The notes under the pieces: generated by a model | Database searches by the model: none | The model's input: the letters and a program-made list of their open reading frames with translations, nothing else | What the model was told of the DNA's origin: nothing | Program-made: the position numbers and the translations under genes | Origin: a virus | Lineage: Duplodnaviria > Heunggongvirae > Uroviricota > Caudoviricetes | Direction: 5' to 3' (one strand) | DNA: 28,804 bases | Virus record (IMG/VR): IMGVR_UViG_3300049444_000130 | In this document: one piece after another, positions 3-28,672 of the stretch | How the letters are laid out: each line of letters starts with the position of its first letter | How positions within the stretch are numbered: the first letter of the stretch is position 1

Positions 3-1043
3 TTTGAGGAATACCCGCTGGCCCTGATTGAACGGCTGGCGCACGTGCAAGCCGCCCTTGGCCAGCCCTGGACGCTCGAGGGGCTGTACAGCGTGTCCGT
101 CTTGCGGGTGCACATGGAACGCCTGCTCGCCGACTACCTGTCACACCTGGGCTTTCATGCCACGGGCAAGCTCACCGCCCTCATTGGCGAGTACCGCAAG
201 AGCGGCACCACGGACCTGGTGGCCGATGCCCTCATTGACGACTTAGAGAAACCACGCGATCACTTTACCAAGGTCACGAGTAACCTCATTCCGGCCTTTC
301 GTGGGGTGGTGGGGGCGCCCCTGGGGCCGCTGTTCTCGACCCTCCCGGCGGACGTCACCTGGACGCGGATTGTCGAGGAGGAGATGGTGGTCTACGTGGC
401 GCTCGCCTCGATGCTGCTCGGCGATATAGCCAACCGCATTGGTCGCGTCATCCTGCAAGACCTGGTGGGGTATCTCGGGCGGCGGTATGCCTATGACGAC
501 ATGACGACCGCCTCGCCCATCACCGTGCTGATCGATGAGTTTGGCGACGTGGCCTACCCCTTGTTCACCAATGCCCTCAATAAAGGGGGAGGCGCGAATG
601 CCCGCTTCATGCTGGCGCAGCAGTCGCTGGCCGATGCCGAGGCCGCGATGGGGCCGGCGCAGGCACGCCGCGTGCTCGACAACCTCAACACCAAAATCTG
701 GTGTCGCCTGGCGGATGATCGTACGGCCAAGGAAGCGACCGACGGGCTGGGCCTGTGTACCGTCCAGCTTCCTGAAACCAGCGTGGGCCTGTCGTATGGC
801 GGTGTCGGGGGACTCAGTGGCTCCGCGCACCGGCGCCTGGCCCCCAAAGAGGTGCCCCTGATCCGGCCCACCTGGCTCACGGCCCTCCCCCGGGGCGAGG
901 CGTTCGTGCGGATGAAAGGCGAGGTGTGGAAGCTGCGCGTCCCGCTGCTCACGCCCGTCCCCCAGGAGATGCTCGACACCCTCGGGCTGACGGCCCTGTG
1001 GACTGGCCTTGATCCGGCTACCGCCCCAGGTACACCGCCGTAG
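3..1043 (+). CDS. traD: Type IV coupling protein (TraD/VirD4 family), C-terminal part, 5' truncated by window edge
   Basis: Frame is open from base 3. Walker-B-like VLIDEF, then QSLAD and VLDNLNTKIWCRLAD, and the C-terminal LPRGEAFV motif typical of TraG/TraD C-terminal domains. Confidence 0.8.
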   Translation, partial: FEEYPLALIERLAHVQAALGQPWTLEGLYSVSVLRVHMERLLADYLSHLGFHATGKLTALIGEYRKSGTTDLVADALIDDLEKPRDHFTKVTSNLIPAFRGVVGAPLGPLFSTLPADVTWTRIVEEEMVVYVALASMLLGDIANRIGRVILQDLVGYLGRRYAYDDMTTASPITVLIDEFGDVAYPLFTNALNKGGGANARFMLAQQSLADAEAAMGPAQARRVLDNLNTKIWCRLADDRTAKEATDGLGLCTVQLPETSVGLSYGGVGGLSGSAHRRLAPKEVPLIRPTWLTALPRGEAFVRMKGEVWKLRVPLLTPVPQEMLDTLGLTALWTGLDPATAPGTPP

Positions 1044-1124: not shown

Positions 1125-1601
1125 ATGAAAGAAGCAAAGAAGGCGCTGTCGGCACGCCCCATCGCCACGCTCATACTCCTATTCCTCGGCATAGGCTTCG
1201 TAACCTATAGTGCAGTGAAGATGCACGCCACCAGCATCCCAACGGTCCCAATGGAAGCAGCGACACCCCCCAGCATACCTCCCTTCCCCGTCAAGCATAT
1301 CCGTCCCGATATGTCACGGGAGGAGGAAGAAATACGAGTAAGTGTGGACCGTAGAACCTGGGAAACACCTCCCAGCTTTAACCTGACCGATTTTCGCTAT
1401 TTCCGCGTCTACCACCGCGAGCTGGATCAGGAGCTCATCTATTGGGTAGGAGACCTTCGCTGGTGCGATGAGGAACCAGCAAAAGAGCAAAGTTTTTATT
1501 CGTACCTGACTGATGCCTACTGTTACGACAAGGGACATAATCATGCCATTCTCGGTTCAGATATGACATGCGATAACTGTATCCGACCCATACGGCGATG
1601 A
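1125..1601 (+). CDS. Hypothetical protein with N-terminal transmembrane/signal segment
   Basis: AAAGGA RBS upstream of ATG 1125; hydrophobic stretch IATLILLFLGIGFVTYSAV; lower GC than neighbours. Confidence 0.65.
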   Translation: MKEAKKALSARPIATLILLFLGIGFVTYSAVKMHATSIPTVPMEAATPPSIPPFPVKHIRPDMSREEEEIRVSVDRRTWETPPSFNLTDFRYFRVYHRELDQELIYWVGDLRWCDEEPAKEQSFYSYLTDAYCYDKGHNHAILGSDMTCDNCIRPIRR

Positions 1602-2084
1602 GAACACCTCCAGAACAGTCAACGACTGCCGACTAAAGATCGGCAGCTTGTCGCTGACTGACAGTCAGCCCAGGGTAGCCAGACTGACACGCGCGACCTT
1701 GGATCGTGTACCACGGTCCGTGAGGGTGATTGACTGCACCCCGATTGCCTTGATGTCTTTGAAGTAGAAAGTAACTATGGCGACACCTGACCTGAGCCCA
1801 ACCGTTGATCACCGTTGCCGGTGTGCCTTTAGCTCTGGAAGAAATTATAACAGTTTATTTGTAACCTTTACAACAGTTTATGCGGCGCTGCCGCACGAGG
1901 AATTGAGCCGTACTGGCTCAACCTCCTATCCCTCTGCTCCCTAAAGGAAGCAGTATCCCGGAGGTCTTTATGAGTCTCCTGTTGTCAGATTCAAGGCCCT
2001 TTTTCACGAATGAAAGGAGAACGATGATCCAACAATTTTTTGGTACGCTCGAAGTCGATACGGCGCGACGGGCCTTGCCCCCCA

Positions 2085-2957
2085 CTACCGCCCGAGATAC
2101 ACCGCCGTGATCGCCTCACGGTGATGGCCCATTTCCGCGCTGATCATGAGGCGGACATCCTCATCAATCTGTCGCTGCATCGGGGTGAGCTGTCCCCGCG
2201 AGGGGCCTCCTGCCTTGGGCGCCAGAAAGCCGGCCAGCACGGCAAAGCGCTCCTGCGCGTACGCGTGTCGTAAGCCGTGCATCTTGTCGAGGTTGGCGCG
2301 GCGGCAGTGGCCCTCATAACTGTGGAGCTGCTGGGCATACGTCTTATGCTTGGGAATCAAACTGGCGTTGTGGAAGCGCGCCAAGGCCTTGGCGCGGTCG
2401 AGCACCTCGCGCTGGGCCGGGGTCTCCAGCGGAATCGTCCGGGGTTGTCCCCCTTTGCACCAACTGCCCTGTAAGGCCAGCTCCGTCCCGTGGTCCGCCT
2501 CGTGCGGCTTGAGTTTGATCGCTTCCTGGCGCCGCAGCCCAAAGGCCCGTTGGAGTTCGAGACTCATGCGGACGTAGGCATTCTGGACACGCGAGAGGCC
2601 CTCGGGGCTGAGCTGGCGTGCCTTGGAGACCGTGGGAATCGGCTGGCGCTTGGCGATGCCATAGGCGTCATTGGTGGCCTTGAGCATGTCGGCTTTGCCA
2701 ATGTGGGCCGCCCACCAGCGCAGGACACTCATGCGGTTCTTCTGGGTGGACGGGCTCAAGCCATCGCCCTGCCACTGGCGGAGCAGGGCGTGGACATGCC
2801 GGCCCTTGAGATCATAGGCGTGGAGCTGCTGAAACCCTGCCGCGATCAGCTGCTCGCCCATCTGGTGGAGGATGGCTTTACGGTTGGCTTGCGTGGCGTA
2901 ACTGCCTTCGCGGGCACGCTGGGTCAGTTGTTTGAGTTCGTACAGTAAATCGCGCAT
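2085..2957 (-). CDS. Tyrosine recombinase (Phage_int_SAM_2 + Integrase_1-like)
   Basis: N-terminus MRDLLYELKQLTQRAREGSYATQ is typical of this family. Catalytic set GLRRQE (R), HGLRH (HxxR), MGH (H) and AVYLG (Y) is present. Confidence 0.88.
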   Translation of the reverse strand: MRDLLYELKQLTQRAREGSYATQANRKAILHQMGEQLIAAGFQQLHAYDLKGRHVHALLRQWQGDGLSPSTQKNRMSVLRWWAAHIGKADMLKATNDAYGIAKRQPIPTVSKARQLSPEGLSRVQNAYVRMSLELQRAFGLRRQEAIKLKPHEADHGTELALQGSWCKGGQPRTIPLETPAQREVLDRAKALARFHNASLIPKHKTYAQQLHSYEGHCRRANLDKMHGLRHAYAQERFAVLAGFLAPKAGGPSRGQLTPMQRQIDEDVRLMISAEMGHHREAITAVYLGR

Positions 2958-3229
2958 GTGTTCGCCTCGTCACGTGGTCAATGTTAATGGAAACTCACAC
3001 CGTGAGAACGGGGAGTCTGTGGTACCGGCACGAACACCGCCCTCGTGGGTACGAGGGCGTCAGAACCAGGATGGCACGTGAGCAATGACGCGGGGTCTCC
3101 TTCCCCACAACGATGGATGTCGAGCAGACACACGTCTGCCAGTGTCTATGGCACCAACAGCCTTGAACACATGGATACAGGCAGGCTGAAACCTGTATCA
3201 CCTGGAGAGCATGTGTGAGAAGATCAAGA

Positions 3230-3294
3230 CCCCAACAGTGTGGGGAGCAGGACGCGCAACGGTGTGCGCCGCAGGCAGGCTCAACGATGTGAGC
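3230..3294. repeat. Three tandem hairpins with conserved AACRRTGT core and compensating 4-bp stems
   Basis: cccc-aacagtgt-gggg (3230-3245), gcgc-aacggtgt-gcgc (3254-3269), gctc-aacgatgt-gagc (3279-3294); period 24-25 nt. Confidence 0.85.
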
Positions 3295-3370
3295 AGCTGA
3301 TGCTAGGAGCCCGACAACCTAGCTACCGATGGGGCTTTCGTCTACACCGGAGTGCAGACATGAGGGGTAC

Positions 3371-3400
3371 AATATACGACAGGCGAGGCGGGTATGTCAA
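3371..3400 (-). promoter_or_regulatory. Sigma70-type promoter pointing toward the recombinase
   Basis: Minus strand TTGACA (3400-3395), 18 nt spacer, TATATT (3376-3371). Confidence 0.65.
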
Positions 3401-3615
3401 GAGGTCCCTTGTGGCGTGGCACTGTTGGGAAAGGAGGAAAGACGTCGTGCGGAAGTCCTTGATTTTCCAAAGCGTTGCGTTCTTTATAGCGCCGCGTCAC
3501 TACAGCAATGCTCGTAGTGACGCGGCTCACGCCGTGTAGGTGTGGCCGCTCCGCTTTGCTCTGCGACCATGGGGGCTGTGCGCGCTGACGCACGCAGCAC
3601 GCCTGGTGGCATGGT

Positions 3616-3846
3616 ATGCTGGGCGTGGGCCTGTCGTCATTCACCATGTCTGGAGGCATCGTTGTGGGCAGTGGGATTCTCGTCGGCACGCTCCTGGTGC
3701 TGTGCATCAGTTTTGGCCTGTGGCAGCACTCCTACTGGGCCGGGCTCTTTTGCTTTGCGCTCATCGTTGTCTTACTGCATGTCGGGCTGGAGGTGATTCG
3801 CCTGGTGGCCTGGAACTGTGATCCCGACCTGGAAGACGACGTATGA
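3616..3846 (+). CDS. Small membrane protein
   Basis: 76 aa with 2-3 hydrophobic segments and an acidic tail; stop overlaps the next ATG. Confidence 0.5.
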   Translation: MLGVGLSSFTMSGGIVVGSGILVGTLLVLCISFGLWQHSYWAGLFCFALIVVLLHVGLEVIRLVAWNCDPDLEDDV

Positions 3847-4205
3847 GTACCGAGCCGTCTGCATCCCGACTCTCCCTCGCGGACCGCCAGGTGCTCCTCC
3901 ACGCCCTGCAGGACGACCACCAGCGCTTGCCGCGCTGGTGGGACACGACAACCCCCATGCATACCCGCTTGCTGCTCTATGGCTATATTATCGAAGACTT
4001 TTGGACAGACACGGCGACCCAGCACCGGCTGCACCTCGCCCAACAGGCGTGGATTCGTCGGGCACGGCAGGCCCTGCGGCAGGGCGGATGGGAAACAGCC
4101 CTGGCGTATCTGCTCCACGCCCGTCAGGCCCAAGCGGAGGCGCACCGGCGCGGCTGGCGCGTCACGGCGGCGGGGCGTGCGGCGGTGGAGGGCCGGCCCT
4201 CATGA
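3843..4205 (+). CDS. Hypothetical protein
   Basis: 120 aa with 4-nt overlaps to the genes on both sides. Confidence 0.55.
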   Translation: MSTEPSASRLSLADRQVLLHALQDDHQRLPRWWDTTTPMHTRLLLYGYIIEDFWTDTATQHRLHLAQQAWIRRARQALRQGGWETALAYLLHARQAQAEAHRRGWRVTAAGRAAVEGRPS

Positions 4206-4695
4206 CCACGCTCGGACTGTTGGCACTGCTCCTGGTCTTTGATTTTCCCAGGGCGACGTCTCCTCCGCCAGATCACTTTGTCATTACGGCCACACACGAG
4301 GACGGCCAGACCGACACGCTCCACGTCCCCCCCAGTGCCGTCGGCGCGTGTCAGGACGACCACCCCAATACCTACTGTGCGCAGTGTGGCCGGGCTGCCC
4401 TGGGGAGGGCGTGGTCACGCTCACGGTGCAGGCGGTGCGCGGCAGGGACACCAGTGCGATTGAGACGCGGGTGGTGTGCCAGTTCAGTGTGCTGGCGCCC
4501 TGCGTCTGCCTGCCGGTCGAGGGCCAGTCGCGCGCCGGCACCGTGGCGGCCAACGAAGCGGACGGAGCCGTCCCCGAGGCGCCGGCAGGGGTGCCTTCCG
4601 TGGTCCTGCCAGCGGCTCCCGCTCCTGCCACACCAGCCCGGGTCGTGGTGCAGTTGCCCACGTTCCCCGCATTGACGGTCAGGCCCGCAACGTGA
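4202..4695 (+). pseudogene. Exported Cys-containing protein with an apparent frameshift near 4385
   Basis: Signal-like MTTLGLLALLLVF...TYCAQ in one frame continues plausibly as WPGCPGEGVVTLTVQAV in the 4348-4695 frame; junction at gcagtgtggc. Confidence 0.45.
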
Positions 4696-4748
4696 CACTA
4701 GACAGGCTCCAGGCAGGAGCCAAGGAGAGCAAGGTGGAGGCGGAGTGC

Positions 4749-4778
4749 TTGACGTGCCCTCTATCACAGGAATATAGT
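4749..4778 (+). promoter_or_regulatory. Putative sigma70 promoter ahead of the packaging module
   Basis: TTGACG (4749-4754), 18 nt spacer, TATAGT (4773-4778). Confidence 0.5.
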
Positions 4779-4832
4779 ATACAGTCATACGCTGGTGGCT
4801 TTCCCTTTGGATGTCTCGCAATGGAGTCTCCC

Positions 4833-5816
4833 ATGCCGCGTGCGCCTATCCCCGTCCCTCTGTGGAAAAACCGTGTGAAAGAGCTGCGGTATGTCTCGCC
4901 TCGGGATCTAGTCGATCATCCGCTCCAGTGGCGGGAGCACCCCGATTTTCAACGATCCGCCCTGCGCGGCGTGTTGGACGAGGTGGGGATCGCCGGGGCG
5001 CTGCTGGCCTATGTCAGCCCAACGACCGGGCAGCTCACCGCCATCGACGGCCATCTGCGGAAAAGCCTGGGGGACGTGCCCTGGCCGACGCTGATTCTCG
5101 ATCTGACCGATGCCGAAGCGGCCTTGCTCCTGAGTACCCATGATCCCCTGGCGGCCCTGGCGGAGAGCAACCACGACCAACTGGCCACTTTGTTGCAGGC
5201 CGTCCACAGTGATGACCCCGCGGTGCAACAGTTGCTCAATGACTTAGCCGAGGGACAGGGCGGAGGGGCCAGTGGTGGAGGCAACGGCTCCGACACGGCG
5301 CCTACCCCGACCTGGATCATTGGCGATAGCCAGGCCATGGACCTCCTGCCAGTCGCGTCCGACTTTGATTATCTCTTTACCTGTCCACCCTATGCCGACC
5401 TCGAACGTTATAGCGACGATCCCCGTGACCTGTCCACCATGGCCTATCCCGCCTTTCTCGCCGCCTATCGCCAGATTATTGCTGCCAGTCTCGCTCGCCT
5501 CCGAGAGGACCGTTTTGCCTGTATTGTGGTGGGGGATATTCGAGATCCCCACGGGTATTATCGCAATTTTGTCAGTGAGACCATCGCGGCGTTTCAGGAG
5601 GCAGGGGCACGGCTCTACAATGAAGCGATTCTGGTGACCGCGGTAGGATCGTTACCATTACGAGCGGGAATTCCCTTTACGGCCAGTCGCAAGCTCGGCA
5701 AAACGCATCAACAAGTGCTGGTGTTTCTGAAGGGAAACGCGAAGCGGGCCACTGAGGCATGTGGCCCGGTCGAGGTGGCGGAGGAGCCGGTGGGGGTTAC
5801 GCTCGCTGAGGCATAG
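4833..5816 (+). CDS. ParB-like domain fused to a DNA amino-methyltransferase catalytic domain (SAM-binding motif not found)
   Basis: ParB-like IDGHLR motif; MTase motif IV FTCPPY with LERYSDDPRDLS; GGAG RBS before ATG 4833 (alternative ATG 4821). Confidence 0.75.
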   Translation: MPRAPIPVPLWKNRVKELRYVSPRDLVDHPLQWREHPDFQRSALRGVLDEVGIAGALLAYVSPTTGQLTAIDGHLRKSLGDVPWPTLILDLTDAEAALLLSTHDPLAALAESNHDQLATLLQAVHSDDPAVQQLLNDLAEGQGGGASGGGNGSDTAPTPTWIIGDSQAMDLLPVASDFDYLFTCPPYADLERYSDDPRDLSTMAYPAFLAAYRQIIAASLARLREDRFACIVVGDIRDPHGYYRNFVSETIAAFQEAGARLYNEAILVTAVGSLPLRAGIPFTASRKLGKTHQQVLVFLKGNAKRATEACGPVEVAEEPVGVTLAEA

Positions 5817-6048
5817 GCCGGAGGGCGCGATATTCCATGTAGAAGCCGACGGGCCGTTGATACCGAGCCGTACGGGCCGGGGTCACGACCGTCCCCGTAT
5901 AGGGGACATAGATGACTCCCGCATGTTCCAGATTGGGAAGATGCCGGCCCTGTAAGGCCGTCTCGAGCGGAAATGCGGCCACGGCGAGACGGCAGCCCGT
6001 CGCGGTATGACTATAGGTAATGGTCGAAGGAGACGGAAGAAGAGACAT
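5797..6048 (-). CDS. Small hypothetical protein
   Basis: AGGAG RBS upstream of ATG 6048; 83 aa. Confidence 0.45.
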   Translation of the reverse strand: MSLLPSPSTITYSHTATGCRLAVAAFPLETALQGRHLPNLEHAGVIYVPYTGTVVTPARTARYQRPVGFYMEYRALRPMPQRA

Positions 6049-6176
6049 CGCATCACTCCTGGGTTGAAAAGGCACGGGAACATCGCAGGAGTCTACCATT
6101 GTTCTAACGACACTGCCACTGTTTGTTCCAGTTTGGGCTGTCGTTTTTCTGTTTGTCCTTATGCGTAGAGACTAAT

Positions 6177-6788
6177 ATGGCCAGCCGCAACCAAACCGCT
6201 GTCTTGGAACGGCGCCACCACGTCGCCCGGTTGTATTTGCAAGGCGAGCAACAATACGCGATCGGCCGCGCGGTGGGGGTGTCGCAAGCCCAGGTGAGCA
6301 TGGATCTTGCGGCCATTAGGGGCCTATGGCTCGCCTCGTTGGTCCGCGATTTCGATGCCAAAAAAGCGGCGGAATTAGCGCGTATTGATCTCATTGAGAC
6401 GGAAGCCTGGGCGGCCTGGCACCGGTCGCAGCAACCGCGAGAAGTGACCTTCACGGAAGCCACCGAGGGGGGAGAGGTCATCGAGGCGGATGGCACGCGC
6501 CACGCGAAAGCGCCCACGCGCAAGGCCAGCATGCGGCGGGAAGGGCAGGCGGGGGACGCGCGTTTTCTGGAGCGCATCCAGAAATGTATTGATCAGCGCT
6601 GCGAGATTCTGGGGCTCAAAGCGCCCCAGAAAACCGCCGCCACCTTGCCGGATGGCACGGCCCTGCCACCCCCGATCCAAGGGCCAGATGTCACCTTCTT
6701 TACCGAGCTGGCGCTCCTCTTTCAGCAATTAGGACCCACGCATGTCCACGATGCTCGCGCCAGCAGCCTCCCCGTGGTGGACGCCTGA
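6177..6788 (+). CDS. Putative terminase small subunit (N-terminal HTH)
   Basis: HTH-like QYAIGRAVGVSQAQVSMDL; lies directly upstream of and overlaps TerL. Confidence 0.65.
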   Translation: MASRNQTAVLERRHHVARLYLQGEQQYAIGRAVGVSQAQVSMDLAAIRGLWLASLVRDFDAKKAAELARIDLIETEAWAAWHRSQQPREVTFTEATEGGEVIEADGTRHAKAPTRKASMRREGQAGDARFLERIQKCIDQRCEILGLKAPQKTAATLPDGTALPPPIQGPDVTFFTELALLFQQLGPTHVHDARASSLPVVDA

Positions 6789-8974
6789 ACGCCAGGCACA
6801 GACCCTGCAGGCCCTGCGGCTCAACCACTACATCCCCCAGTTTCCCACCGCCAAACAAGCCTATGCCTTGCTGCTGCCCCACCTGGAAGTCTTTTTTGGC
6901 GGGAGTGCTGGACCAGGCAAATCAAGTTGGCTTCTTATGAGTGCCTTGCAATACGTGGACGTGCCCGGGTATGCGGCCATCCTCTTCCGCCGCACGTTTG
7001 CCGAGCTGTCGAAGCCCGATGCGTTGATGGACCGGGCGCATGCGTGGTTGCGGGGCACGGATGCCCACTGGGAAGCGTATCGCCATACCTATGTGTTCCC
7101 GTCCGGGGCACAACTGGTGTTTAGTCATCTCGAAAATGAGATGAGCAAATATGAGCACCAGTCGGCAGCGTACCAGTTTTGTGTTGCCCGAGGCACCCCC
7201 ATCCTTCTGGCGAACGGGCACTATCAGCCTGTGGAAATGCTCAAACCTGGTATGCTGGTAGCGACATTGCAAGGTCCCCGTCCTCTTACGTATTGCGCTC
7301 CCCCACGGGCCGAGTTCTGCTATGCGCTGCATACTGCTGGTACCGTAACGGTCGTGAGCGCCTCGCACCAGATTTTAACGACGCAGGGCTGGCACGCCCC
7401 CCTGGGGGAGATCGCCAGACAATGCCATGCAGGTGACACCACTTCCGCAATGTCCCAGGCGTTATCTGAAGCACCTCACTTGCATATTCATAGCCCACCG
7501 TGGGATCAGCAGCAAGGAGACGTACCTGGATTTCCACCGCGGCAGGCAAGGGGGCTCCTGGGGAACGACGCATGGTTAGCAAATGCGCAAATCGGTTGCG
7601 GAGCGTCTGCTGATGGACACCAAGGAGGGCCGCTGGAGCGTCCCTGGAGTGCTGTACGGACCTGCACTTCATCCAAAGATGCACGGCAATGCTGCTTGGA
7701 ATCGTCGGCATGGAGCACCCCATGCGCATTGCGGGAAGGCAGACAGAGTAAATTTGCATAGCGGTTGTCATGGCGGATATGATTCGCATGATGCACGATT
7801 TCTGCAGGATCTAAGAGACGTCCGAGATAACATTCCATTACAAGGCGGTGTTGCGGCACGTTTCCACCCACTCGTGCATGGGGATGATCCGGAGCATATT
7901 CTGCGATATATCCCCCGACCCTATGAATATTCCCACCCCTACACGAGATTGCCGGTCCAAACGGATACCCCGCTCGTTTCCGCTGATATTGGAATGGTCC
8001 CAGTGGGTGTGCAGGTCGTGTATGATCTAAGAGTGGCAGAAGCCTCACACTATATCTCCTTTGGTGGTATTATATCACAAAACTGTGGTTTTGACGAAAC
8101 GACGTCCTTTACTGAATCCATGTATCGCTTTCTCTTTTCTCGACTCCGACGATTACGTGGGGTGGCTGTCCCCATTCGCATGCGGGCCGCCTCGAATCCT
8201 GGCGGGATTGGGCATGGATGGGTCCGCCAGCGGTTTATGGTCGAGCAGGACCCCCAGCGGGCCTTTGTCCCGGCCCGGCAACTCGACAACCCGCATCTGG
8301 ACGTCGAGGCGTATGAGCAGTCCCTCGCCCAACTCGACCCCATCACGCGCCAACGGCTGCGGGCGGGGGATTGGGACATTACCGAAGAGGGCAAGCTCTT
8401 TAAGCCCCATTGGTTTGCCGTGGTCCCCGACTATCCCCGCGTGGCACGGATGATCCGGTTTTGGGATTTTGCCGGGACAGAAGTCACCTTGACCCGCGGC
8501 GGCGAACTCCGCAACGACCCCGACTGGACGGTGGGCTTGAAACTGGCGGAGTATCGCGGCCAGTATTGGGTGGTCGATGTGCGTCGGGCGCGGCTCTCCC
8601 CCAAAGGCGTGGAAGACCTGGTCAGTCAGACGGCGGCCCTCGACGGGGCACACGTCGATATCTGGCTGGAGCAAGAGCCCGGCTCCTCCGGCAAAGCCGT
8701 CATAGAGGACTATCAGCGGCGGGTGTTAAAAGGCTACGCCGTCTATGCCCAGCGCTCGACGGGCTCAAAGGTGGAGCGGGCGAAGCCGGCGAGTAGTGCG
8801 GCGGAAGCCGGGAACATCGCCGTGATTGCCGGGCCATGGAATGCCACATTTTTGGAAGAATTGAGCCTCTTCCCCCAGCAGGGCGTGCATGACGATCAAG
8901 TGGATACGCTCTCCGGGGGGATCAATGTGCTCCGCGATGCGCCCAAACGGGCCGGGGCGTGGGGGCGCGGGTAG
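6742..8974 (+). CDS. terL: Terminase large subunit containing an intein; frame broken by one indel inside the intein
   Basis: Walker A GGSAGPGKS. Spliced Walker B QF|CGFDE. Coupling motif AASNPGG. Nuclease motifs RFWDFAGT, LEQEPGSSGK and HDDQVD. Split over ORFs 6742-7761 and 7583-8974. Confidence 0.92.
7286..8048 (-). CDS. HNH homing endonuclease with C-terminal HTH-like segments, antisense inside the intein; frameshifted near 7634
   Basis: GYIAEYAPDHPHA...QHRLVME...VHHANHIRHDNRYANL (HNH_3-like) in ORF 7506-8048 continues as AALLGVHQQTLRNRF...YASEVLQITPGTLRKW in ORF 7286-7789. It has its own RBS. Confidence 0.85.
8056..8077 (-). promoter_or_regulatory. Extended -10 promoter and Shine-Dalgarno for the antisense HNH
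   Basis: Minus strand reads TGA-TATAAT-ACCACC-AAAGGAG-ATATAGT-GTG(8048). Confidence 0.8.
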
Positions 8975-14620: not shown

Positions 14621-16207
14621 ATGACAACTACAACTAAGGAATCTCGTAGACAACTTACGACTCATTTCGCATCAACGATTCCTCCCACACGTCTCATGCT
14701 CAATAACATCGAGTATCTTGTTGCTCCGGCTGTTCTTATAGTTGAGGGTGTTCTCAACAATGCGTATGTGCCTGGCGAGGAACTCGTGGCAGAAGCGTGG
14801 AACGGCGTGCCCGTCGTCGTGCGGCACCCCCAGGATGCGACCGGCACCCCCATCAGTGCCCGCAGTCCCGAGGTCCTCGCCACGCAAGGCGTCGGCACCC
14901 TGTATCGCTGTCAGCTCAGTACGGGCCGGCGCCAGAACCAAGTGGTACAAAGTTTGCGGGCGGAAATCTGGGTGAATATCGCCCAGGCCCAGGCGTTGGG
15001 CGGGGAAGCCGTGCAAGCCCTGGAGATGATCGAAACACAGCAACGCTTGGAAGTGTCCACGGGCTTTTATAGTCAGGCCACACCCCAGGCCGGGACCGCC
15101 TACGGCACGCCCTACACCGAAATCCTGACGGCATTCCAACCGGACCATCTTGCCCTCTTGCCCAATGGCATTGGCGCGTGCTCCTGGGACATCGGCGGGT
15201 GTGGCGTCCCGCGCTTGCAACAAGCCGCCTGTGCCTGTCCGACATCGGCCTGTACCTGCAAAGCACTCATCACCGAGGAGACCGCCATGGCCCTGCCCCC
15301 TCCCACCGACACCCCGCATGGCTGGCGCGGGTTTCTGCACCTGTTTCGCTGGTTTCTGGAGCGGGAAGCGGCCCAAGACCCCGCCCCGTTGCAGGTGGAA
15401 GAGACGGATGTGGATCTGCGTGATGCCCTCTATGCAGCGCTGGCCCGCGAGAACGCCACCGACTACACACCCCTGTTTATCGATTCCCTCGACATGGTGG
15501 CGCAGACGTTTGTCTACCGGCGCGGGGAACGGCTCTTGCAACGGGCGTGGACCACGGATGACACGGGCGTGGTGCAACTGGCCGCCGAGGTTCAGGATGT
15601 ACAGCGCAGTACCACCCATCTGCCCGTGGGGGAGCCCCACCCCGTCGAGCCCCTGACCCCGACGTACATGCATGAAACCCCACACACTGAGGAGGAGGAG
15701 CCTATGCCCCCGACTGCCGTGCTGAAGCGGCGTATCGATGCGCTTATTGCCAACCAGAATACCCGGTGGACCGAACTCGACCGGGAGCGCCTGGAAGCCC
15801 TGGACGAAGCGTTTTTGATTCGCCTCGAACAACAGCCCGTGGATCAGCCCACCGACGTCACACCGCCGCAAACGGTGCAGGAAGCGATTGCCACCCTGCC
15901 GGCGCATCTGCATGAGCCCATGGCCGCGATGGCGCAGGAATACGAGGTGCGCAAACACGCAGCGCTGGCCAAGCTCATTGCCAATGCCTCGTGCCCGTTC
16001 TCCCAGGATGAACTGCAAGCTATGACGGCCCAACGGCTGGAGCAGCTCGTCGCGATGGCGACCCCCACGATGGACCCGGCCAGCTCCTATCTCGGAATGG
16101 GCTTGCCGCATCTCCGGGCGATCCCGGAAGAAGAACGGCCCCCCGAGCCGCCCAACACGTTCGCCAAGGTGGTCGAACTGCAACGGACCCGCGGGGTGTT
16201 GCATTAA
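14621..16207 (+). CDS. Prohead protease/scaffold (DUF2213-like)
   Basis: PAVLIVEGVLN, WNGVPVVVRHP, EVSTG and DHLALLPNGIGACS motifs, then a helical scaffold-like C-terminus. Confidence 0.82.
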   Translation: MTTTTKESRRQLTTHFASTIPPTRLMLNNIEYLVAPAVLIVEGVLNNAYVPGEELVAEAWNGVPVVVRHPQDATGTPISARSPEVLATQGVGTLYRCQLSTGRRQNQVVQSLRAEIWVNIAQAQALGGEAVQALEMIETQQRLEVSTGFYSQATPQAGTAYGTPYTEILTAFQPDHLALLPNGIGACSWDIGGCGVPRLQQAACACPTSACTCKALITEETAMALPPPTDTPHGWRGFLHLFRWFLEREAAQDPAPLQVEETDVDLRDALYAALARENATDYTPLFIDSLDMVAQTFVYRRGERLLQRAWTTDDTGVVQLAAEVQDVQRSTTHLPVGEPHPVEPLTPTYMHETPHTEEEEPMPPTAVLKRRIDALIANQNTRWTELDRERLEALDEAFLIRLEQQPVDQPTDVTPPQTVQEAIATLPAHLHEPMAAMAQEYEVRKHAALAKLIANASCPFSQDELQAMTAQRLEQLVAMATPTMDPASSYLGMGLPHLRAIPEEERPPEPPNTFAKVVELQRTRGVLH

Positions 16208-16899
16208 GCGGCCGGCTTTCGTGTCTTTCGTGCGGGGGCAATGGTCAGAAGGAGCGGTTGGATAGGACACAAAGGCGGACCAGTATGTTTGCGGCTATTA
16301 CACGACTTACAGGCAGGAACAATGTTGCTCATCGTATGGTTGCCACCTTGCGATACTGGGGTAATGTGGTCTTGCGTCAACTTGCCTTTGCGCCGTTTCC
16401 CACAATAGACACAGCGATGATCATAAGCGGCCTGGATTTCTACCCATTGCGCCGGCGTCAAGTCACGCACCACTGCTCCGCGTATGGTGGCTCTGCGCGT
16501 CTTGGCTTTCTCGCACATCAACTCAGGATGCGCTTTCGCATAGGCAGCGTCAGACGCCCGGGACTTTTCTGGGTGTCGCAAACGCCAGGCCAGGGAATAC
16601 TCTGCGGCTTTCTCTGGGTGCTCAGCATGCCAGCGTTGGTAATTGGCCTGATCCCGGTCGGGATTGGCTTCCACCCACGCACGTCTTTTTGCACGGACCT
16701 GCTCAGGATGCGCAGCAGCATACGCGCGGCGTCTCGCACGAGTTTCCTCGGGATGCGCGGCACGATGGAGCAACACTTGCGCGTTTTCTTCGACGCGGTG
16801 GGTTGCATAATAGGCACGACGTTGTGCGTTGCGTTTTTCACGATTCTTGGCACGGTAGGCAAGGTCGTAGAGACGTTTTTGCTCGCGGTCCCATGGCAT
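16204..16899 (-). CDS. Free-standing HNH endonuclease (HNH-2), paralogue of HNH-1
   Basis: CVYC...QDHITP...GGNHTMSNIVPACKSCNSRK; C-tail PIQPLLLTIAP matches HNH-1 PVQPLLLTLAP; AGGAGG RBS. Confidence 0.9.
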   Translation of the reverse strand: MPWDREQKRLYDLAYRAKNREKRNAQRRAYYATHRVEENAQVLLHRAAHPEETRARRRAYAAAHPEQVRAKRRAWVEANPDRDQANYQRWHAEHPEKAAEYSLAWRLRHPEKSRASDAAYAKAHPELMCEKAKTRRATIRGAVVRDLTPAQWVEIQAAYDHRCVYCGKRRKGKLTQDHITPVSQGGNHTMSNIVPACKSCNSRKHTGPPLCPIQPLLLTIAPARKTRKPAA

Positions 16900-27616: not shown

Positions 27617-28672
27617 ATGATGTCTGTCGGTGACGCGGAGGCCACCTATGGCGCCGGCCCTGCGCTCTGGACCTTTCCTGCAACCTCATCGTTTACGCAG
27701 TACGACGAAGCGAGCATCCAGCAGTGGGATGACATGATCGCCGACGATGCCGACCTCATTACGGGGTTTGAAGGCATCACCCAGCAAGAGATCGCCCGGC
27801 AGTCCGTCCGGTTTACCTATACCGAGACGCGCACCAAACCCCATACGCTGGCGTCGATGCTCGGGCTCACGCTTGGGACGATTGTCGGCACGCAAGACGG
27901 CGCCCTCGCGGCCTACCGCCAGAAAGCCACGCCCGGCTCCTCCCTGGCCTTGCCCAGTATTGGGGTGCAAGCCCTGCATGATGGCGGGGTCCAATATAAG
28001 TATACGGGGGTGAAGGCGGACAGTTGCGAGCTGTCGATGACCCAGGCCGAGCCCTATCTGCGCTCCTCGACCGTCCTCATTGGCTCGGGCAGCCGGGTGA
28101 TCGCCGCCGATGCCTTTCCGGTGTCCGTGACCGAGAACTGGCTGCGCATGGGGAATGCCAAGCTGTACCTCAAAGACACCGCTGGCACGCCCATCACCAT
28201 TCCGCCCACGCCTTCGCAGACCGTCGCGAACCTGGGCGGCAGTGAAGTGGATATTTCCTCCCGCGTGCTCGGGTGGACGCTGCGCTGGCAGAACAACCTG
28301 GTCCCGGACTTTGGCTACCGGCCTGGTGGCGGCGACGTCCGTACCAGTCTGCATCCCACGCGGCGCAGTGCCACGATCTCGATCCGGCTCCAGGTCGATT
28401 CGACCGATGAGGCGACGTACCTGGCGTACTACACCGCGCAAAATCGATTAGCCCTCGAACTCAATCTCAAGATGACGACGCTCCTGGCGGTCGGGGGGGC
28501 CATGTTCCCAGGGCTCATTGTGCTGATCCCCCGGGTGCAGTTTCGCCCGTTTACGCGCGCCCAAACGAATCAATTGGAAGACCTCCAGCTGGAAGCCACG
28601 GTGTTTGACGATAAGACGAATCCGATGATGGCCGCGTTCATCTATGGCACGCAAGCGGTCTATTTGGCGTAG
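27617..28672 (+). CDS. Major tail tube protein (true start may be ACG at 27584)
   Basis: 351 aa; SIGVQA...YTGVKADSCELS and RRSATISIRL patterns typical of tail tubes; followed by a chaperone-like gene. Confidence 0.72.
   Translation: MMSVGDAEATYGAGPALWTFPATSSFTQYDEASIQQWDDMIADDADLITGFEGITQQEIARQSVRFTYTETRTKPHTLASMLGLTLGTIVGTQDGALAAYRQKATPGSSLALPSIGVQALHDGGVQYKYTGVKADSCELSMTQAEPYLRSSTVLIGSGSRVIAADAFPVSVTENWLRMGNAKLYLKDTAGTPITIPPTPSQTVANLGGSEVDISSRVLGWTLRWQNNLVPDFGYRPGGGDVRTSLHPTRRSATISIRLQVDSTDEATYLAYYTAQNRLALELNLKMTTLLAVGGAMFPGLIVLIPRVQFRPFTRAQTNQLEDLQLEATVFDDKTNPMMAAFIYGTQAVYLA

Follow-up and report, generated by a model that had tools for sequence, protein, structure and literature searches.

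A conserved hairpin and a structured non-coding region upstream of an MpsA-like recombinase gene: candidate parts of a MOB_M mobilisation module

The stretch of DNA analysed here (hereafter the window, 28,804 nt) comes from IMG/VR virus record IMGVR_UViG_3300049444_000130, assigned to Caudoviricetes, and carries a gene for an MpsA-like protein with the tyrosine-recombinase fold (Table 1). The protein matched two Pfam families, PF12834 in its N-terminal part (E = 1.3e-15) and PF12835 in its catalytic domain (E = 1.5e-11), and six residues that make up the R-K-HxxRH-Y set of tyrosine recombinases (R143, K168, H227, R230, H231 and Y287) were invariant in 22 homologues. Some 660 nt without a convincing gene lie 5' of the recombinase ATG (2957), as far as a divergent 76-aa ORF at 3616. 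An MpsB-like gene directly after the recombinase gene was not found; about 480 nt of non-coding DNA lie beyond the stop at 2085, and the window protein has the N-terminal PF12834 domain in place of an MpsB gene.

Table 1 Coordinates of genes and non-coding features in the window
Feature	Position	Strand	Basis or remark
TraD-type type IV coupling protein (T4CP) gene, 3' part	3..1043	plus	PF12696, PF10412
MpsA-like tyrosine-recombinase-fold protein, 290 aa	2085..2957	minus	PF12834 + PF12835
Terminal box AACATTGACC (consensus AACAYTNACC)	2976..2985	minus	18 nt before ATG
Last hairpin before box, CCGT-TCTC-ACGG or CTCAC-GGT-GTGAG then TTTCC, terminator-like	2994..3011	minus	
Perfect hairpin CGCCCTCGT/ACGAGGGCG, 9 bp, 4-nt loop	3038-3046/3051-3059	minus	
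Hairpins GCAGAC/GTCTGC (3124-3129/3134-3139) and GATACAGG/CCTGTATC (3174-3181/3192-3199)	3124..3199	minus	
Three tandem 5-bp hairpins, 24-25 nt apart	3230..3297	minus	MFE structure
Start-proximal domain	3302..3359	minus	alignment A5 (window, L087, L099, L101)
Sigma-70-type promoter TTGACA (3400-3395) - N18 - TATATT (3376-3371)	3371..3400	minus	11/12 consensus matches
Family-wide hairpin GCCGC-GTCACTAC...GTAGTGAC-GCGGC (stem 3491-3526)	3484..3533	minus	candidate oriT core / protein-binding site
Hint-like domain (weak)	6742-7761		phage-like part of window
Large terminase	7583-8974		phage-like part of window
DUF2213	14621-16207		phage-like part of window
HNH endonuclease	16204-16899		phage-like part of window
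Tail tube	27617-28672		phage-like part of window

The recombinase gene is convergent, tail to tail, with a TraD gene, which matched TIGR03743 (SXT_TraD) at 1.8e-43 and is present in complete form on contig L081. Similar neighbourhoods recur among homologous loci, with a T4CP gene adjoining the recombinase gene in four of them (L087, L099, L101 and L103) and lying 3-4 kb downstream of it in nine marine loci. On a Pleionea plasmid, the homologue (51% identical) ends 2 nt before the T4CP gene, the place expected for a relaxase gene; MOB-suite typed this plasmid as 'non-mobilizable'. A DNA search of PLSDB with the window gene and its upstream non-coding region (2085-3615) gave no match, and a metagenome scan yielded one fragment. 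The closest protein match (80%, L090) was set aside because its scaffold is a chimera that contains Ns and a P450 fusion; its 375-aa 'P450 + integrase' protein (P0009) is an assembly chimera across the Ns and no real fusion protein.

The 3' end of the recombinase gene is marked by a 22/24-nt direct repeat (1018-1041 and 2085-2108), which equals the final eight codons of the gene. At 1018-1041, the repeat overlaps the T4CP stop in just the way that the true gene end does in L101, and because of this mimicry the stretch 1042-2084 looks like an insertion into an overlap of the recombinase gene (int) and the T4CP gene. The stretch is lower in GC (53% in the 1001-2000 composition window) and holds a 158-aa ORF on the plus strand (1125-1601), a promoter-like site with 14-nt direct repeats on the minus strand (1873-1844) and, also on the minus strand, a weak partial match (E = 0.16; 1333-1412) to the majority-class RNA module described below. 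By gene content, positions 6742-28804 look phage-like; the conjugation/relaxase module meets this phage-type module right past the hairpin.

Comparing the upstream regions of about 100 homologous loci, we found that the most conserved single element is a hairpin (stem 3491-3526) located about 100 nt upstream of the promoter. An earlier note on this DNA, which covered the span 2958-3400, had missed it; it lies just beyond that span. The hairpin consists of an invariant GTCACT/AGTGAC inner stem and an outer stem of 5-7 bp, has 13-bp perfect arms in the window and, in almost all loci, stands 350-870 nt ahead of the homologous gene. Its paired GTCACTR/YAGTGAC motif occurs in 47 of 86 loci, and a covariance model (R1) recovered the hairpin, farther upstream, in 30 of the 38 further loci searched. 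In the window, R1 scored 44.4 bits (E = 1.5e-8) on the sole copy in 28.8 kb. Across an alignment of 41 loci (A2), 92.7% of cells were paired and four outer pairs fully covaried, exchanging CG, GC and UA, with a covariation score that none of 500 shuffles matched. The loop, and with it the spacing of the arms, ranged from 5 to >20 nt, and G.U pairs outnumbered A.C pairs by 28 to 4. The promoter scan revealed no consensus promoter upstream of the hairpin, which is why the hairpin probably lies outside the RNA. A full-text literature search for the motif returned unrelated papers only.

Just 5' of the hairpin, L099 (3005-3165) and L101 (523-674) carry five to six degenerate direct repeats of 25-26 nt with the iteron-like consensus GCnGCCACArCCCnnCTGGCnGCG; in the window, no more than a single copy is seen (near 3558-3583).

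The earlier note had proposed that a near-consensus minus-strand promoter drives a structured non-coding leader of about 400 nt into the recombinase gene. This promoter is present as a sequence match, and a four-sequence comparison places it at a conserved position: L087, L099 and L101 have TTGACA or TTGACG, then TAnAnT 17-18 nt on, at the same place, and the flanking sequence is otherwise unalignable among the four. The scan gave two promoter-like sites in 1500-4500, compared with 0.6 ± 0.9 in shuffles. The proposed length also holds, since the coordinates give about 407 nt between the predicted start near 3364 and the ATG. Minus-strand ORFs inside the leader measure 68, 49 and 36 aa, and a 121-aa ORF that spans the promoter had no Pfam match. 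We found no conserved small ORF in the leaders of relatives, in line with the earlier statement that the region lacks a convincing ORF. Stop-free stretches share just 21-23-aa matches, and as these fall in several frames and on both strands, the leader is conserved at the nucleotide level rather than as coding sequence. Proteins encoded upstream in L084 and L087 left no remnant in the window leader.

The sense strand of the leader folds better than its shuffles (z = -2.16; 1 of 100 shuffles equally good), and the antisense strand folds no better than shuffles (z = -0.48). When compared with 80 homologous loci and close relatives by blastn and nhmmer, the leader gave nothing beyond the coding region; its conservation is detectable solely through motif and structure analysis, not through plain nucleotide search. 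The match in Rfam that the earlier note suggested seeking did not appear: at gathering and permissive thresholds, the window and 11 related loci returned noise only (HIV-1 SL4, E = 1.1). EFASI (RF02957) and STAXI (RF01728) had no match in the same 12 sequences (E up to 0.5 for seven) and, by these searches, the window element is therefore a class separate from both and uncatalogued in Rfam. Tandem hairpins are also the description given for STAXI, and three occur in tandem in the window; a full-text literature search on STAXI brought up unrelated papers only.

Closest to the window is a clade formed by the window itself, L084/L086, L087-L089, L091-L093, L099/L100 and L101, whose recombinase proteins are 62-73% identical to the window protein and which is more diverged at the RNA level. 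The transcript would begin with a covarying stem-loop (3340-3359), directly after the predicted start, whose stem sequence differs in each clade relative. Next in the start-proximal domain is a pseudoknot in which AGCCC (3332-3336) pairs with GGGCT (3308-3312) in the loop of a hairpin at 3302-3323; in L099 the AGCCC/GGGCU pairing is replaced by AACCC/GGGUU. In alignment A5 (four sequences), 94.6% of cells were paired, compared with 31-49% in slid controls, and 8 of 19 pairs were changed on both sides. A hairpin with the loop UUGUCGGGCU is common to the clade, which also keeps the family-wide hairpin, including a compensatory A-U to C-G change within its 'invariant' stem.

All of the perfect hairpins named in the earlier note are present, and its 'triple repeat' corresponds to the three tandem hairpins, which have similar loops (CATCGT, CACCGT and CACTGT, or CAYYGT) on different stems and were not seen in L087 or L099. 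Most of the hairpins listed there fall in the middle 200 nt of the leader, which varies in length and sequence within the clade, and those at 3124-3199 in this variable part were not conserved in relatives. At the place equivalent to 3038-3059, L084, L092 and L099 have hairpins with changed stems, in an alignment judged by eye. The final 90 nt of the leader, consisting of a hairpin and then the box, are common to the clade. The position of that hairpin (2994-3011) is occupied by one with another stem sequence in L099 and L101 and by the identical sequence in L084, L087 and L092. Two hairpins in the leader are terminator-like (3245-3230 and 3006-2994). Taken together, the comparison with relatives places the region beyond what chance would give.

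In 74 of 86 loci, the AACAYTNACC box falls within the 120 nt that precede the gene, and in most of them 15-60 nt ahead of the ATG. The majority class, represented by an alignment of 32 loci, has a 3' module in the final 130 nt before the box, made up of an H-type pseudoknot, a GGGAGUGGUGUCCC hairpin and a three-way junction in which GCAA, GAAA or UUCG caps one of the arms. Of the cells in this alignment, 86.6% were paired (28-52% in slid controls), and 23 of 36 pairs were changed on both sides. The module contained 98 G.U and 37 A.C pairs, and this excess of G.U over A.C marks the int-sense strand, as read from the alignments, as the strand selected to fold, with the excess coming from a few lineages and thus counting few independent events. 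A model of the module (R2) matched L101 (E = 0.004) and a Pseudomonas/Achromobacter group (E = 6e-5 to 0.02), with no match on the window leader even with filters off. The middle and 3' parts of the window leader are too diverged for R2, and the window leader is assigned to the family from four to six close relatives and the shared end motifs.

The arrangement of the gene relative to its upstream region differs within the clade. In the window and L101, the T4CP gene is followed by the recombinase gene, box, leader and hairpin, in this order and all in the opposite orientation to the T4CP gene. In L087-L089 and L099/L100, the recombinase gene points the same way as the T4CP gene and is followed by the box, leader and hairpin, which are aimed back at its 3' end (loci compared: L087 5001-6704; L099 1500-3003; L101 698-2593). 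The protein tree places L099 and the non-inverted L101 as sisters (95/95) with L087 elsewhere, from which it follows that the recombinase ORF alone was flipped at least two times. No inverted repeats were found at the borders of the flipped ORF. Elements with the flipped ORF retain the hairpin, promoter, start-proximal domain and box, which speaks for an independent function of the non-coding unit, beyond that of a 5' UTR. The description of the region as a leader transcribed into the gene was right in that it is non-coding and promoter-led, but it is not merely a leader, given the inverted ORF in L087-L089 and L099/L100.

The best precedent for such an arrangement comes from Salmonella Genomic Island 1 (SGI1), whose MpsA is an atypical relaxase of the MOB_M type. 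We queried PLSDB with oriT_SGI1, as printed in the supplement of Kiss et al. 2019 (PMC6414798), which identified one Salmonella record; the same query was absent from complete E. coli genomes. A 321-aa gene 304 nt from oriT in this SGI1-type record is MpsA and matched PF12835 at 4e-11. By BLASTP, the window protein and this MpsA were 29% identical over 245 aa (E = 6e-18), with HG-RH-YAQ and the terminal YLG of the window protein aligned with MpsA. PF12835 is the MpsA-type relaxase signature in a 2023 classification of genomic islands (PMC10484663), and MpsA, the only characterised member of its Pfam family, acts in mobilisation (PMC6414798). MOB_M relaxases are very common in chromosomes, with about half in MPF_G conjugative elements (2026 preprint, bioRxiv 10.64898/2026.01.13.699239). 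Some 300 nt separate oriT of SGI1, with its essential GC-rich inverted repeat, from mpsA downstream, and the DNA between the two encodes the sgm-sRNA, which mobilisation requires (PMC6414798, PMC9299015). This sRNA is cut from a 650-700-nt transcript of a strong promoter and ends at a hairpin by the start codon (PMC6414798, PMC9299015); it acts in trans and is dispensable for MpsAB expression (Nagy et al. 2021, PMC9299015).

The mobSGI1 module (oriT_SGI1, sgm-sRNA, mpsA and mpsB) and the window have homologous enzymes, both with PF12835. The same kinds of part occur in both, with promoter and inverted repeat in opposite order: a GC-rich inverted repeat several hundred nucleotides ahead of the enzyme gene, a distant strong sigma-70 promoter and a long structured non-coding stretch that extends to a start-codon hairpin. 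SGI1 has an 8-nt CACTTACC box 58 nt before the mpsA ATG, which resembles the window box. Homology of the cis-elements was not detectable, with R1 and R2 giving E values of 0.3 or worse on the SGI1 module (L104), and oriT_SGI1 has no GTCACT/AGTGAC hairpin. The two modules differ in further respects: the promoter is upstream of oriT in SGI1 but between hairpin and gene in the window, which probably leaves the window hairpin outside the RNA; mpsB is present in SGI1 and not in the window; and PF12834 was scored in the window protein but not in the MpsA copy. In addition, the window element carries its own coupling protein, whereas SGI1 borrows one from an IncC helper.

Folded single strands serve as substrates of tyrosine recombinases in the integron attC/IntI system and at the CTX-phage hairpin used by XerCD. 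Like the window hairpin, the attC and CTX hairpins have a conserved inner sequence, variable length and a covarying stem, and one strand is used. IntI and XerCD, however, perform full strand exchange with a partner site, and neither a partner site nor a cassette array was seen at the window locus. The IS110 bridge RNA, to which the earlier note had compared the leader, is also a non-coding RNA encoded directly ahead of a recombinase gene and conserved together with that gene. That analogy fails for the enzyme, which is a tyrosine recombinase homologous to MpsA and not an IS110-type transposase of the DEDD/RuvC-like class, and in the window family the RNA is retained in loci with an inverted gene. 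The window leader also showed no loops of a guide-like kind that match element ends. SGI1 oriT together with the sgm-sRNA is a closer precedent than the IS110 bridge RNA (PMC6414798, PMC9299015). The more general suggestion of an RNA or ssDNA partner of the recombinase family came close to the mark, in that the element travels with the family. Two other tyrosine-recombinase-like relaxases of the MOB_M type, MobK (pIGRK) and TcpM (pCW3), resemble the proposed window module by description: each has an integrase fold and requires its catalytic tyrosine, and its oriT is rich in inverted and direct repeats and placed immediately 5' of its own gene (PMC8152469). MobK and TcpM reportedly differ in having no N-terminal DNA-binding domains and little sequence in common with MpsA, and an RNA partner is not described for them (PMC8152469).

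On balance, we favour, with somewhat better than even confidence, the interpretation that the upstream region belongs to a MOB_M mobilisation module and comprises its oriT-like hairpin and an RNA like the sgm-sRNA; it is because the SGI1 arrangement is the best precedent that we assign the hairpin as oriT core and the structured region as the sgm-like RNA. Positions 2958-3533 (minus strand) would then be the non-coding half of the module and the MpsA-like enzyme encoded at 2085-2957 its protein half. The hairpin at 3491-3526 would be a DNA site bound, and probably nicked, by the enzyme, that is, an oriT core that folds on the int-sense strand. From the promoter (3400-3371), a structured RNA of about 400 nt would be produced, starting with a protective stem-loop and the small pseudoknot domain and ending at the hairpin and AACAYTNACC box just before the start codon. 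In the window arrangement, read-through of the leader would also yield the recombinase mRNA. By analogy with the SGI1 sgm-sRNA, the RNA would be expected to be required for the transfer process proper, whether as cofactor of the relaxosome or as regulator, beyond any tuning of translation. Nicking, the role in transfer and production of the RNA are what we infer here from the conserved elements and the precedent. A bolder version, which we consider doubtful, is that MpsA-family relaxases across Proteobacteria are ribonucleoproteins in which a trans-acting RNA assembles or targets the enzyme on the folded GTCACT hairpin. If true, this would explain why RNA, hairpin and gene stay together despite a flipped gene, and the SGI1 sgm-sRNA would be one diverged example of a general RNA-dependent relaxosome.

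Several observations could also fit an ordinary site-specific recombinase acting in multimer resolution, integration or inversion, with the hairpin as its recombination site and the RNA as a cis-acting 5' UTR that sets its level. The enzyme has the complete R-K-H-R-H-Y set and the N-terminal core-binding-type PF12834, a palindromic hairpin resembles two inverted binding arms, and small plasmids have the gene beside rep, which is also a seat of resolution systems. Recombination does occur around the gene, as the ORF inversions in close relatives and the 1-kb insert in the 24-nt duplicated site at its 3' end indicate, and with its full catalytic residue set the enzyme could still carry out true recombination at the hairpin. 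We nevertheless regard this account as unlikely. Classical core sites have a fixed crossover of 6-8 bp, unlike the variable arm spacing of the hairpin; the G.U over A.C bias and the freely covarying outer stem point to single-strand folding; and the window has one hairpin copy only. Moreover, the leader persists where it is unable to be the 5' UTR of the gene, and the role of MpsA, the sole characterised family member, is in mobilisation (PMC6414798). The retained elements also bear on a purely cis-regulatory leader, which would control the recombinase gene at the level of transcription or translation, as an attenuator, a thermosensor or a 5' UTR bound by protein, and have no independent role. 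A promoter followed by some 400 nt of structure, the two terminator-like hairpins and the position of the box close to the start codon in most loci are what such a leader would show, but in L087-L089 and L099/L100 it faces the 3' end of the inverted gene with all elements retained, and the SGI1 counterpart RNA is trans-acting, with MpsAB expressed independently of it (PMC9299015). On this evidence, a leader confined to cis regulation is quite unlikely.

The strand bias, a sign that single-strand folding matters, could also fit a leading-region ssDNA signal, either a promoter of the Frpo/ssi type or a priming site, acting on the transferred strand in the recipient. It lies beside conjugation genes, and in L084 after an ssb gene, and many family hairpins are capped by GCGAAGC-type mini-hairpins. 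Such mini-hairpins are very stable in ssDNA. There is, however, no long hairpin with -35 and -10 boxes in its stem: a Frpo-like hairpin around the promoter was tried and rejected, as flank-to-flank duplex energies were not above those of shuffles in four relatives (z = -0.6 to -1.9). It is the sense strand of the recombinase gene that folds, not its template, and GNRA/UUCG caps and pseudoknots are typical of RNA, all of which makes an ssDNA signal very unlikely compared with the mobilisation module that we favour.

A MOB_M module with an oriT and an RNA would be of a known kind, described from one experimental system (SGI1). What is new here is a precise family-wide hairpin consensus with a strand bias, a set of uncatalogued RNA modules, a promoter and start-site stem-loop conserved in the window clade and the recurrent flipping of the enzyme gene. 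MOB_M has been reported as the commonest relaxase type in bacterial chromosomes (2026 preprint, bioRxiv 10.64898/2026.01.13.699239); these relaxases were overlooked until recently, and SGI1 is the one system in which oriT has been mapped and a need for the RNA demonstrated. The hairpin consensus could offer a route to oriT prediction for many 'non-mobilizable' plasmids and islands, and this broad class of loci supplies a comparative data set on what the RNA does, in which the gene-inversion variants represent a natural separation of RNA from mRNA.

Individual homologous loci showed additional features. On the Pleionea plasmid NZ_CP133550.1 (L103), a single block (3346-6680) holds the hairpin and the 3' RNA module together with the PF12835 and T4CP genes. 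The genes of a 4.4-kb Gallibacterium plasmid (L102) are limited to rep, the PF12835 gene and two further small ones, and 1.6 kb of DNA upstream is unannotated. One locus (L069) contains two family hairpins in inverted orientation, about 3 kb apart (98-150, minus; 3176-3227, plus). Finally, tRNA-like sequences lie about 1.4-1.5 kb downstream of the recombinase gene in L001 (6266-6338), L006 (6312-6378; scoring under the Rfam gathering cut-off) and L029 (6240-6313), as expected of islands integrated at tRNA genes.
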